Shown one piece after another: positions 50,385 through 54,454 of a stretch of 64,000 nt of DNA (position 1 is the first letter of the stretch; each line of letters begins with the position of its first letter). The notes under the pieces were generated by a model, which searched no databases, was not told the origin of the DNA, and saw only the letters and a list, made by a program, of their open reading frames with translations. The stretch comes from Candidatus Microgenomatus sp. (GTDB lineage Bacteria; Patescibacteriota; Microgenomatia; UBA8517), in assembly GCA_020724555.1 (NCBI GenBank), contig DYGT01000001.1:65197-129196 (forward strand), written 5' to 3'. Both the position numbers and the translations under genes were made by a program.

Positions 50385-51884
50385 CTACCACCCCATCCGG
50401 CTTTCAAATATATATTGAGCGGCAAAGTTAACATGGTTAGGATATGTGACATTGAAAGAGGGTGATATGCAGCTTAGGTTTCTGGTTGCACTCGGTTCGG
50501 TGTAGCCAATTACAGGATTTGTATAAATAAAAAGCGCTATCATTTCTGCAAAATCTTCAACAAGCATTCCTCTTCGATGCGGTAATGGATATGTACAAAC
50601 AGGTCTTTCTGAGGAGACTCCAACATCTCCGCGGTAAAGCTCGTTTTGTACTGATGGATACCTGTGTGCAAAAATATGTCCACTTTCATGGGCTAAGGTA
50701 TAAATCGCTGAGCCTACAGTTGAACTTCCTAATTCATAAATCAAGATTGTGTTTGAAGATATAACCTCGCCTCCATATGTTTCGGTGCCAGAGTAGGTTA
50801 AATAAACAGGACCTTTACTGCATATTTTATCCATATAGGCTCCTGTCTGTGCCATAAACTCTGTTGCTCGAATCATGTTAGCTTTATATGTTTCTGGCCA
50901 AGATCCATTAAGGACGAAACAAGTTTGTGTTAGAAATATCCCACCCCCCAAATCTTTATAGACGCTACTTCCGGGTGGTACCACATAGCTACTGTTGGTG
51001 ATAACCAGAATTGTAAATCCAATAAATAATGGTATTGCTATCAAAGAAATTACAATTGGCCAGATAACCACAGACATAAAAGCTCCCATGATTGCTAAAA
51101 AAAGAAGAACACTTCTTTGGCCTGCTTTTTTAAAGCCTTCACTTCCGCCTTGGATGTAGGATAGTCCTCCGGTGACAAGTGCCAGCCCAAATGCAGGAGG
51201 AAAAAAAATTCCCAAAGCTGCCGCACCCAGTGAAACCGCGGCTAAATTACTTCCATCACCATCTCCGGTCAATTTTATTAGTCCTGATCGTAAAAGATCC
51301 TTGGCTTTGTTAAGAATAAAAATATCGGCTTCAACCAACAAATACACACCGGCGGAGGCGGCGGCTCCCAGGGATGCAAGGCCAAGCCGGGCCGCGATCC
51401 TGGTGCTTAATCCTTGGACAGCCTTCTTTTTTACAACACTTTCCACGTCTGGAATTTGAGGGATTTTATTTAAAAGCTCGCCGATTTTTCCTTTAATTTC
51501 AGGAGACAAGGTTTTGCTTGCAAGTTCGGTGGCACGCCTACTTACTTCCTGGGAAACAATTTGCGTTGGAATGGGGGGAGCCCCGGTTTGGCTTAAAACT
51601 TCATTGTGGTGAAGTATTTGTTCCCAAGCGGCTTGTTTTTTATCAGCTGGAGTATTTTCGTTTAGATCTACGGCCTGGGCGGCGATCTCCACTTTTTGTA
51701 CTTCTGCTTCTTCCTCAGGAGGCAAGGTTATTTCTTGACTATCAGGGTTAAGATTTCCATTTAACCAAACGATAAGTTCGGATAATTCTTGTTGAGTGTA
51801 AAAACGGTTTGGGTTCTCCGGGTCTTTTCCTGAGGTTAGGATTTGTTGGATCGCCTGGTAGGTGTATTTGTTTTTATCATCCAT
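50385..51884 (-). CDS. Membrane protein with a C-terminal zincin-like metallopeptidase motif (HExxH...E), part of the T4SS-like cluster
   Basis: Central TM segments. C-terminal TLAHESGHIFAH (HExxH) with a downstream EDFAEM Glu, gluzincin-like. Its start overlaps the VirB4 stop, suggesting the same operon. Confidence 0.5.
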   Translation of the reverse strand: MDDKNKYTYQAIQQILTSGKDPENPNRFYTQQELSELIVWLNGNLNPDSQEITLPPEEEAEVQKVEIAAQAVDLNENTPADKKQAAWEQILHHNEVLSQTGAPPIPTQIVSQEVSRRATELASKTLSPEIKGKIGELLNKIPQIPDVESVVKKKAVQGLSTRIAARLGLASLGAAASAGVYLLVEADIFILNKAKDLLRSGLIKLTGDGDGSNLAAVSLGAAALGIFFPPAFGLALVTGGLSYIQGGSEGFKKAGQRSVLLFLAIMGAFMSVVIWPIVISLIAIPLFIGFTILVITNSSYVVPPGSSVYKDLGGGIFLTQTCFVLNGSWPETYKANMIRATEFMAQTGAYMDKICSKGPVYLTYSGTETYGGEVISSNTILIYELGSSTVGSAIYTLAHESGHIFAHRYPSVQNELYRGDVGVSSERPVCTYPLPHRRGMLVEDFAEMIALFIYTNPVIGYTEPSATRNLSCISPSFNVTYPNHVNFAAQYIFESRMGW

Positions 51885-53835
51885 TTAAATCATTGTAGTC
51901 TACTATGGTTTTGGTTTCGAGCGGAGTTGCCGTTTGCTGTCCGCTTGGAGCTTTCGAATCTAAGATCTGAGTATCCCGTGGGTTTGTAGTGATAAGTTGA
52001 TATTCTTCGCTTGAGGCCACTATTTTTATGGGAGCATGGTGAGGCCCGGCAAATAAAATTCCCTCTCCCACGTTGGCCGCCAACAGTAGTTGTTTTTCGC
52101 CCTGAGATAAATAAAAGGTTTCCGCGATTTTGTCGATGGCTGCGGGGGATTGTTTTAAAAGAAGCCGCATGGCTGAGTTAGTTACGACCGCTTTTCCAAT
52201 GTCTTGTGACAAGAAATCCTCCACATCCTGAGTGATTGTAGTAAGCCCTAAATAGTATTTGCGGGCGCGTTTGACTATGGACCATAAAAACTGGGCAGTG
52301 TCTTGGTAGCGCATCATGTGCCAGGCTTCGTCGACAACCAGAAGGCGCCTTTTGACATCGCGGCGGATTTTGGTCCAAATAAAGTCTAGTATGACAAACA
52401 TAGCAATCGGCCGGAGAGCGTCTTCGATGTCGCGCACGGAAAAAACGGTGAAAGGATTTTTAATGTCGATGTTTGTTTGCTGGTCAAAAATGCCGCGGTA
52501 GCTGCCTTTAACATATTTTTCAATCCTTGCCGCAAGATCCAGAGCGTCTGTTGTTTCCATGCCGATTAAAGCTTTATAAAGATCCTCTATTAACGGCGGT
52601 TCGCGGTCCTGGGTGTCGGGATCCGGTGTAATTCCTTTGGCGCGGTAGGCGTTAATTAAAGCTTTATCCAACAAGGCTTCCTGAGATGCCGTCATTTGAC
52701 CCATGATTATTTTAAATAAAGAGTGAAGCGAAAGAATTTTTAAGCCCAGCTGGTTTTCCCCTTCTTCACGGATTTGGCTTAAGTCAAACGGATTGATTTT
52801 GCTGGGACTTGAGAAAGAAAAAGCAATATATTCACCGCCCACAGCATCGCATAGATTTTTATATTCGTTTTCCGGGTCAATCACAATCATTTCTGTGCCA
52901 AACATCAGGCTTCTTAAAGACTCAAGTTTTACAAAAAAGCTTTTTCCTGCTCCTGAGGTAGCAAAAACGGTCATGTTGCTGTTTTCCAGCGAGAATCGGT
53001 CAAAAATAATAAACGAGTCGTTTTGTGAATTAATGCCATATAAAATCCCATCATCACTTGACAGCTCGGCTGTGGTAAAGGGAAAAGTGGTTGCCAGGGA
53101 AGTAGTGTCCATATTTCTGGTAATAGTAAGTTGGTCACGCCCAAAAGGGGCAGTCGATAAAAAGCCGCGTTCGTGATCCAAGGCCGCGTGTTTGGCGACG
53201 ATGAGGATTGAGCCCAAAGTGGACTCAACCCGCTTTGTAATACTGTTTAGTGCCTCCACAGATGTGGCCGGGATAGTGATATAGAAGGCGAATTCAAAAA
53301 AACGTTCCGCGCCTTTAACAAGTTGCTCTTGAAGTATTTTAGCGTCGTCTAATTTTGCCTGAGTAGAAGGATTTACGATTTTTCCTCTTTGGATGTCTGT
53401 CGAAATTTCGGCTTCCATTTCAGTAATTTTGCGCCTCAGATCATCTAAAATTGTCCTACCTTCCACCGGATATATATAAAATGATAAATCCAAGCTATGG
53501 TTAAAGTTAATAATAGGCTCCATCCACCCGGGAACGACAAAGCGTGGGTATCCTGCCACAAAAAGAGTGCGAAAATAAACATCACCAATTTTTATGTAAT
53601 CAAAGTCTATTTCGCTTTCATTGGGGGCGATAATGTCATCCGGCGGCACACCTTCTTTAAAGGCTTTTATTGGATCCAGCTTTGGTTTTTGAGCTTGTGG
53701 TATGTGAATTCCGTTGGGTTTTTTCGTTTTTTTAATTTGCGGTAGCTTCATTTTGAATCTCCTTTGTCTCCCCGGACTCTGTTTCTTGGATTTTATCAAC
53801 TTTAATGCTTTCGGTGTCGGGGTTATAAGTATCAA
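51877..53835 (-). CDS. virB4: VirB4/TrbE/CagE-family type IV secretion ATPase (ATPase portion)
   Basis: Walker A TSGAGKSFFVKLE and Walker B LLVVDEAWHMM, in the conserved VirB4 C-terminal half. The real start may be MKLPQIKK (53751). Confidence 0.8.
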   Translation of the reverse strand: MILITPTPKALKLIKSKKQSPGRQRRFKMKLPQIKKTKKPNGIHIPQAQKPKLDPIKAFKEGVPPDDIIAPNESEIDFDYIKIGDVYFRTLFVAGYPRFVVPGWMEPIINFNHSLDLSFYIYPVEGRTILDDLRRKITEMEAEISTDIQRGKIVNPSTQAKLDDAKILQEQLVKGAERFFEFAFYITIPATSVEALNSITKRVESTLGSILIVAKHAALDHERGFLSTAPFGRDQLTITRNMDTTSLATTFPFTTAELSSDDGILYGINSQNDSFIIFDRFSLENSNMTVFATSGAGKSFFVKLESLRSLMFGTEMIVIDPENEYKNLCDAVGGEYIAFSFSSPSKINPFDLSQIREEGENQLGLKILSLHSLFKIIMGQMTASQEALLDKALINAYRAKGITPDPDTQDREPPLIEDLYKALIGMETTDALDLAARIEKYVKGSYRGIFDQQTNIDIKNPFTVFSVRDIEDALRPIAMFVILDFIWTKIRRDVKRRLLVVDEAWHMMRYQDTAQFLWSIVKRARKYYLGLTTITQDVEDFLSQDIGKAVVTNSAMRLLLKQSPAAIDKIAETFYLSQGEKQLLLAANVGEGILFAGPHHAPIKIVASSEEYQLITTNPRDTQILDSKAPSGQQTATPLETKTIVDYNDLNG

Positions 53836-54454
53836 AAAATAATTTAATTATTTCCTCGTTAGTTAGCTGATGCAGTTTAAGTCCGAGCCTTCCGGTCTGG
53901 CGGATTAAATGGTCTCTTTTGGGGTAAAGGGCGGTTTCGACTTTTTTTATTATATAGTCTTTACTGTAGGGAAGGGGCTTGTCATCGGCTTTTAGTCTGC
54001 CAAAAATGTTTTTACTTAAACCAAGCTCAAGCGGTGAAAAGGGGATAATGATAAAAAAACGCTTTCCCAAAACATTTTTCTTTTTTATGGTGTCTGCAAT
54101 AAAAGCTCTATAACCCTGCATAAGCTTTTTTAGTTTAGGATTTTCTATTTTGTTATATTTTTCCTCAAGTTTTGAGAGGTACTGAGACACATCCTTTTTT
54201 TGTGTGCGCACAAGAATCTGCACAGAAAAAGACAGGGAATTTATAAGGGCTGCGTAGGCTGCGACCACAGCCTCTTGCTCTCTTTCAGATAAAAGACCAA
54301 AGTTAAGGGACGTACTTTCCAGGATTAAAGCTGCTCCTCCGTCTTTGTATAAAACCAAATCTTTTGTAATTTCTGCCACGGGGACTCGTTTTTGTGCTAA
54401 ATCATAAAGCGGACTGTCCGGTAAATTGAAAACTGGTATTTTGGGTATTTTCAT
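53732..54454 (-). CDS. VirB4 N-terminal domain encoded as a separate, overlapping ORF (split or frameshifted VirB4)
   Basis: Its pattern (KDGGAALILESTSLNFGLLSEREQEAVVAAYAALINSL...KRFFIIIPFSP) parallels the N-domain of Gram-positive conjugative VirB4 proteins such as TcpF and Tn916 Orf16. The overlap with the ATPase ORF is 20-104 nt. Confidence 0.55.
   Translation of the reverse strand: MKIPKIPVFNLPDSPLYDLAQKRVPVAEITKDLVLYKDGGAALILESTSLNFGLLSEREQEAVVAAYAALINSLSFSVQILVRTQKKDVSQYLSKLEEKYNKIENPKLKKLMQGYRAFIADTIKKKNVLGKRFFIIIPFSPLELGLSKNIFGRLKADDKPLPYSKDYIIKKVETALYPKRDHLIRQTGRLGLKLHQLTNEEIIKLFFDTYNPDTESIKVDKIQETESGETKEIQNEATAN

Follow-up and report, generated by a model that had tools for sequence, protein, structure and literature searches.

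A VirB4 ATPase probably encoded by two overlapping genes in a chromosomal type IV secretion locus of a Microgenomatia bacterium

Two overlapping open reading frames (ORFs) are found on the minus strand of a 64,000-nt stretch of DNA from Candidatus Microgenomatus sp. (contig DYGT01000001.1 of assembly GCA_020724555.1; this whole stretch is called the window). Between them they resemble VirB4, the ATPase of type IV secretion systems (T4SSs), which in systems such as that of R388 is a single chain. The locus thus raises the question of whether a single gene has been broken by a sequencing error or a mutation, whether the two frames are joined during expression, or whether two genes are present. 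The initial annotation had left these explanations side by side. The observations described below indicate that VirB4 is very probably a two-gene protein here, and that this is its normal and conserved form in the chromosomal T4SS of a Woesebacteria/Microgenomates-type Patescibacterium. The 240-aa ORF (ORF1) and the ORF that carries the Walker A and Walker B motifs of an ATPase (ORF2) were both confirmed on the minus strand (Table 1), and they do overlap in different frames, ORF2 being in the +1 frame relative to ORF1.

Table 1. Coordinates of the two ORFs, their junction and the neighbouring genes in the window.
Feature	Position	Strand	Details
dnaA	46948-48327	+	459 aa
dnaN	48530-49669	+	
Downstream operon member	50385..51884	-	499 aa; four transmembrane-like segments; C-terminal domain with HESGH (residue 399)
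ORF2, predicted VirB4-family ATPase without the first N-terminal subdomain	51877..53751	-	624 aa; NCBIfam, Pfam and PDB matches
Walker B region LLVVDEAW	52321..52344	-	ORF2 residues 470-477
Walker A GAGKS	52939..52953	-	ORF2 residues 267-271
ORF1/ORF2 overlap	53732..53751	-	20 nt; stop TAA 53734-53732, start ATG 53751-53749
Shine-Dalgarno sequence AAGGAG	53759..53764	-	within ORF1, near its 3' end; 7-nt spacer to the virB4 ATG
ORF1, TrsD-like or "TraC-like" (PF26593) protein	53732..54454	-	240 aa; stop TAA 53734-53732
VirB3-like (PrgI family) membrane protein	54451..55485	-	344 aa; Pfam PrgI 28.9 bits (cut-off 27); gene calls

The extent of the overlap depends on where translation of ORF2 begins. 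A mechanical listing takes ORF2 from a TTG at 53835 and gives a protein of 652 aa (51877-53835), which is the form first annotated. This start was rejected because it has no Shine-Dalgarno sequence, is unused by the gene callers, and lies in an open stretch that is not conserved in locus L008. The likely start is the ATG at 53751, which has AAGGAG (53764-53759) upstream of it with a 7-nt spacer; gene calls on all four of the independent assemblies give products of 240 aa and 624 aa with this same start. If ORF2 begins at this ATG, the real overlap is 20 nt (53732-53751) and not 104 nt, so that the longer ORF exists as listed while the protein is likely to have 624 residues. The first 40 of these form a lysine-rich leader, which is not conserved.

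ORF2 is predicted to be a VirB4-family T4SS ATPase. It scores 377.1 bits against the NCBIfam profile of the VirB4-like CD1110 family (conju_CD1110; cut-off 325) and 123.2 bits against Pfam P-loop_TraG (cut-off 25.8), and the AAA_10 and DUF87 families match as well. The solved C-terminal domain of VirB4 (PDB 4ag5) matches with an E-value of 5.4e-48. Only positions 180-752 of the 752 in the CD1110 profile are covered by ORF2, and only positions 295-893 of the 894 in VirB4_plasma, the profile of VirB4 from Mycoplasma integrative and conjugative elements (ICEs). A complete N-terminal domain in one polypeptide is therefore not found in ORF2, and the missing part is matched by ORF1. About 250 residues precede the P-loop domain within ORF2. 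The split thus falls inside what is usually termed the N-terminal domain, and since these residues are kept in ORF2, what ORF1 represents of the full-length profiles is only their first ~180-290 positions.

The product of ORF1 is a soluble polypeptide with a disordered acidic tail at residues ~213-240. It matches positions 109-292 of the 894 in VirB4_plasma (E 1.9e-6), and residues 26-137 match the NCBIfam TrsD/TraD profile (NF041427) with 31.7 bits and an E-value of 1.3e-7. In its length (~200-240 aa) and its place, downstream of a VirB3-like gene and directly upstream of a short VirB4-like ATPase, ORF1 agrees with the description of TrsD/TraD. Judged by its sequence, it would be a remote relative of TrsD/TraD, and not a member as the NCBI defines the family. 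The likeness of ORF1 to the VirB4 N terminus, which the initial annotation had noticed, is therefore real and remote, and is limited to the first part of that domain. ORF1 resembles TrsD/TraD, the VirB4 N termini of Mycoplasma ICEs and those of the fused Patescibacteria proteins described below, and not TcpF, Tn916 Orf16 or PrgJ as such, the comparisons originally proposed.

Homologues of ORF1 are numerous. A large protein database contains 2,116 of them. Each of the top 120 stands alone, with a length of 213-273 aa, and these closest homologues come without exception from records of Patescibacteria or Woesebacteria. The "TraC-like" family PF26593 is assigned to an identical 240-aa protein (P0001) and to most of these 120 homologues in the precomputed annotation of that database, and the membership of ORF1 in PF26593 rests on this table, the local copy of Pfam giving no match. 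Many of the more distant TrsD-like proteins (P0170 with 705 aa, P0125 with 369 aa, and many of P0124-P0264) consist of a domain of ~200 aa followed by a low-complexity tail rich in Q, N, P and S. These tails are 100-500 aa long, have no Pfam match and contain no ATPase.

The relationship of the two ORFs to a complete VirB4 becomes clear when they are compared with single-chain proteins. On the VirB4_plasma profile the segment matched by ORF1 (109-292) is directly followed by the segment matched by ORF2 (295-893), so that the ORFs are collinear with a single-chain VirB4. The same order is found in a fused relative of 787 aa (P0156), in which residues 11-199 align with ORF1 at 46% identity and residues 213-766 align with residues 41-593 of ORF2 at 66% identity. 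Two further loci, L041 and L068, each have one continuous ORF (about 860 and 910 aa, respectively), in which the N-terminal domain is followed by a variable linker and then by "APQSIE(V/I)DFD", where the homology to ORF2 begins. A search with the L041 protein found 27 further or identical fused clusters of 783-897 aa, which rank above the far more numerous split forms of 570-670 aa. Overall, the fused minority has one protein of 783-910 aa that is collinear with ORF1, a linker and ORF2.

Searches of the PDB sequences did not connect ORF1 with R388 TrwK, a VirB4 of known structure: phmmer with ORF1 found nothing. As the N terminus of TrwK is out of reach of such searches, the connection is made through fold comparison and the fused relatives. 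A model of ORF1 alone, built with 40 homologues, has a predicted local distance difference test score (pLDDT) of 74.6, and R388 TrwK/VirB4 accounts for each of its top eight Foldseek matches in the PDB (E 1e-2, with probabilities reaching 0.98). The comparison with the full-length fold was made with a fused relative, P0271, standing in for the pair in the window. The P0271 model superposes on full-length TrwK (8rtd_O) with a Foldseek E-value of 1.5e-23 and template modelling scores of 0.60/0.64 over ~890-897 columns. Taken together, the collinear fused relatives and the superposition of P0271 on TrwK identify ORF1 as the N-terminal subdomain of VirB4 present as its own polypeptide, and the homology of its product to the first N-terminal subdomain of single-chain VirB4 is shown in this way. 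The fused relatives and the models show that ORF1 and ORF2 together would make up a complete VirB4.

The arrangement at the junction was surveyed in 80 species-representative loci from Woesebacteria/Microgenomates relatives. In 78 of them there are two ORFs, and one fused ORF is present in the other two. The frame of ORF2 relative to ORF1 across the 78 split loci is 0 in 10, +1 in 28 and +2 in 40. An ATGA overlap of 4 nt is the commonest junction (25 loci), and among the others there are longer overlaps as well as gaps, the widest being 72 nt. A junction geometry that varies freely, combined with a two-gene outcome that is constant, fits only separate genes, which are probably translationally coupled. 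In the window itself, the junction lies in a stretch of 181 bp that shows no difference (100% identity) between four independent assemblies, each of a different sample; two of these assemblies represent a different strain, whose neighbouring genes differ in length. The order PrgI, TraC-like, VirB4 is also present in distant relatives. The split is thus natural and is the normal, conserved arrangement in this group, in agreement with the first of the explanations offered in the initial annotation. Since fused and split variants occur in one clade, they constitute a natural experiment on the role of the VirB4 N-terminal subdomain.

The virB4 genes of the surveyed loci have some peculiarities of their own. 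Five of the 80 (L033, L042, L045, L063 and L086) contain an in-frame insertion of ~550-590 aa directly after Walker A. The insertion site reads GAGK|S...HN|S[YF]FVKLEAL, and the related proteins P0287, P0372 and P0389 are annotated with LAGLIDADG_3 and Intein_splicing; from its sequence the insertion is a predicted intein in the VirB4 P-loop. The virB4 gene of the window has no intein. In the Woesebacteria chromosome record OY970314.1 (L061:4747-6514) the virB4 homologue shifts frame at about residue 381, which may reflect a genuine frameshift, decay into a pseudogene or a mistake in the assembly; a defect of this kind was among the options that the initial annotation had considered for the window. 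About 25 loci, in addition to L008, L010 and L015, come from metagenome-assembled genomes (MAGs) entitled "uncultured Gammaproteobacteria bacterium (binchicken...)" and carry a Woesebacteria-type locus at 55-83% identity. The Gammaproteobacteria titles of these MAG records look like placeholders or wrong taxonomy.

Several observations weigh against the interpretation of the pair as a two-part VirB4. The score of ORF1 against TrsD/TraD (31.7 bits) lies well short of the curated cut-off of 200 bits, and the local Pfam scan of ORF1 matched no family. A profile of the ORF1 family did not find TrwK among the PDB sequences, the only hit being a chance match to 2p5i at an E-value of 0.41. The confidence of the P0271 model is moderate (pLDDT 68.6). 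The binding of the ORF1 and ORF2 products to each other in trans, which is most likely, is argued here by analogy. Finally, the long low-complexity tails in many relatives of ORF1 hint that the standalone protein may hold roles beyond that of a piece of VirB4.

The last point leads to the alternative that survives best, in which the TrsD-like protein is a descendant of the VirB4 N terminus that now serves the T4SS as an accessory factor in its own right, such as an adaptor for substrates or pilins. ORF1 diverges faster than ORF2 (55-66% versus 70-83% identity in the same loci), many of its relatives have the Q/N/P-rich C-terminal tails of up to 500 aa, and in the passages of the recent survey of Patescibacteria T4SSs that are used here (PMC12102498) TrsD has no assigned function and its Gracilibacteria homologues are not associated with VirB4. 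However, the gene is tightly adjacent to virB4 or overlaps it in 78 of the 80 loci, both parts are kept at similar divergence in the fused forms of the same clade, and the model of the fused protein superposes on full-length TrwK as a single unit. Such an independent factor is therefore rather improbable. A related proposal, which is also unlikely, is that the TrsD-like polypeptide is a tunable, exchangeable adaptor and as such more than a detached piece of VirB4. If this were the case, the way in which the T4SS engages VirB3, pilins or the host might be set by the stoichiometry of this polypeptide or by its disordered tails, which are specific to the lineage and reach ~500 aa in relatives, and the repeated fission and fusion within Woesebacteria would reflect selection on the adaptor role.

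A programmed +1 (or -2) ribosomal frameshift, or transcriptional slippage, that yields a fused full-length VirB4 is suggested by the overlap of the ORFs in different frames and by a superficial likeness to prfB-type sites, namely runs of A7 and A6 beside the ORF1 stop (53733-53719) and AAGGAG upstream of the stop. A fusion would require the +1 or -2 shift to occur between 53847 and 53735. The sole homopolymer in this interval is a T6 run at 53839-53834, which codes for the FF conserved in the last helix of ORF1. Slippage on the A7 run cannot remove the stop, since the run begins within the TAA itself. The usable part of the overlap after P212 contains neither an X XXY YYZ heptamer nor a codon prone to +1 shifts, which answers the earlier suggestion to look for slippery sequences there. 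Moreover, ORF2 has its own Shine-Dalgarno sequence and ATG, and all three frame relations occur among the relatives, including the ten same-frame loci with an in-frame stop and the loci with gaps of up to 72 nt; as the frame relation varies, no conserved recoding signal can exist. A frameshift was rejected on the grounds that there is no usable slippery site, that the frame relation is not conserved and that ORF2 starts independently, and it is extremely improbable.

There is likewise next to no chance that a sequencing or assembly indel of 1 nt broke a single VirB4 gene or that the gene has recently decayed into a true pseudogene. In favour of such a break, 32 codons without a stop precede the ATG in the ORF2 frame (53847-53752), the T6 run lies in that open stretch, and fused single-ORF relatives exist. 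However, the identity of the junction in four independent assemblies together with the split in 78 of the 80 species effectively refutes this explanation. Furthermore, a shift at the T6 run would lose Y210 and P212, which are invariant in the ORF1 family, ORF2 has its own AAGGAG and ATG, and L008, the closest species-level relative, has a shorter open stretch in front of this start. The pair should consequently be flagged neither as a pseudogene nor as a recoding site, and the annotation of the 240-aa "hypothetical protein" should be changed to TrsD-like VirB4 N-terminal subdomain protein.

By combining these observations, it is possible to propose how a VirB4 made of two polypeptides may be produced and assembled. 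The four overlapping genes of the operon would be transcribed together and, as their overlaps suggest, their translation would be coupled. Translation of virB4 would initiate at its own ATG, which follows a strong ribosome-binding site in the terminal part of the TrsD-like gene. The TrsD-like protein would then dock in trans onto the 624-aa ATPase, thus rebuilding a complete VirB4. In the R388 structures, as summarised in PMC12857230, the N-terminal domains of VirB4 are embedded in the membrane and make contact with both VirB3 and VirB8. By comparison with these structures, the TrsD-like protein may supply the surface that links the ATPase to the PrgI-like protein and to the membrane.

Single-chain VirB4 proteins (R388 TrwK, the CD1110 family of Firmicutes ICEs and the Mbov_0397 family of Mycoplasma ICEs) share the ATPase core and the domain order with the pair, and ORF1 and ORF2 together cover positions 109-893 of the 894 in the profile of the Mycoplasma ICE family. 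They differ in that the first N-terminal subdomain is a separate polypeptide here; in place of the linker of the single chain there is the acidic tail on ORF1 and the lysine-rich leader on ORF2.

The closest published counterpart is the T4SS cluster described in the survey cited above (Quinonero-Coronel et al. 2025, Microb Genom, PMC12102498). According to the passages of the survey used here, TrsD is the most abundant T4SS component recovered in Patescibacteria, with 2,272 homologues of which 1,664 are associated with virB4, and is described as remotely homologous to the VirB4 N terminus; PrgI/VirB3 homologues adjoin virB4, and the cluster is often near dnaA. The term "TrsD" is absent from the main text of Guglielmini et al. 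2014, and the claim of remote homology is thus cited via PMC12102498. The locus of the window has the same features: a TrsD-like gene and a PrgI/VirB3-like gene beside virB4, a chromosomal position a few kb from dnaN and dnaA, Woesebacteria/Microgenomates relatives and no relaxase among the scanned neighbours. Compared with these passages, nothing essential is different. As the association of TrsD with VirB4 was published in 2025, the present finding exemplifies an arrangement that was already known. The fused minority (2 of 80 species; 27 protein clusters) and the freely varying junctions are not mentioned in these passages; they add detail and nothing categorically new. The same passages list the TrsD homologue of S. 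epibionticum as essential and report that the T4SS is required for epibiotic growth in cultivated Saccharibacteria, which makes the T4SS that houses the pair biologically important.

Outside the Patescibacteria, the gene order broadly matches the staphylococcal operon of the pGO1/pSK41 type (trsC-trsD-trsE; MPF_FATA subclass), in which the VirB4-like ATPase TrsE is encoded beside trsD. In the staphylococcal plasmid pSN134, trsD (227 aa) is directly upstream of a 670-aa DUF87/VirB4-like ATPase without the N-terminal subdomain, a small membrane protein is encoded upstream, and a CHAP hydrolase two genes downstream of the ATPase. An hhalign comparison of the ORF1 family with pSN134 TrsD gave an E-value of 1.1e-4 and a probability of 56% over 179 columns (residues 18-212 versus 32-217). 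In contrast to the system of the window, the pGO1-type system is plasmid-borne and conjugative, it includes a relaxase, and a gap of 20 nt lies between trsD and trsE; the identity between ORF2 and the staphylococcal ATPase is only ~25%. In the S. aureus plasmid CP030453.1 (L088), the trsD slot (2173-2863) has no annotated coding sequence in the incomplete PLSDB gene table and contains only a 134-aa ORF, which suggests that trsD is disrupted in this record. Since CP030453.1 has no annotated trsD, pSN134 was taken for the staphylococcal comparison.

The two ORFs belong to a set of four minus-strand genes, encoding the VirB3-like protein, the TrsD-like protein, VirB4 and a 499-aa membrane protein, which overlap from stop to start by 4 (ATGA), 20 and 8 nt, respectively. 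The end of this operon is 0.7-3.5 kb from dnaN and dnaA, which agrees with the closeness of T4SS genes to the replication origin reported for Patescibacteria (PMC12102498). No relaxase was seen among the neighbouring genes scanned, and a scan of 50000-56000 for promoters and terminators gave nothing above the shuffled expectation and nothing convincing between the genes. The T4SS is the relaxase-poor system that is found near dnaA in many Patescibacteria.

The VirB3-like protein has two transmembrane-like segments (residues 39-77). The mechanical listing of its ORF runs to 55557 from a TTG and has 368 aa. In this listing, residues ~284-342 at the C terminus resemble a CarboxypepD_reg-like beta-sandwich with 29.8 bits, which is below the cut-off of 32.3. 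A C-terminal beta-sandwich is unusual compared with the small VirB3 proteins of classical systems.

The 499-aa protein, which had no match in a Pfam scan, sits in the slot that is occupied by a VirB1-like cell-wall hydrolase in other systems. Its gene was compared with that of a near-identical strain (L005:8571-10019). The first 306 aa, comprising the cytoplasmic and transmembrane part, are 96% identical, whereas the C-terminal ~190 aa are unrelated: the HESGH domain is found in the window and Peptidase_M23 in L005. It looks as if the gene downstream of virB4 has exchanged its enzymatic domain, which is presumably extracellular, in the manner of a cassette.

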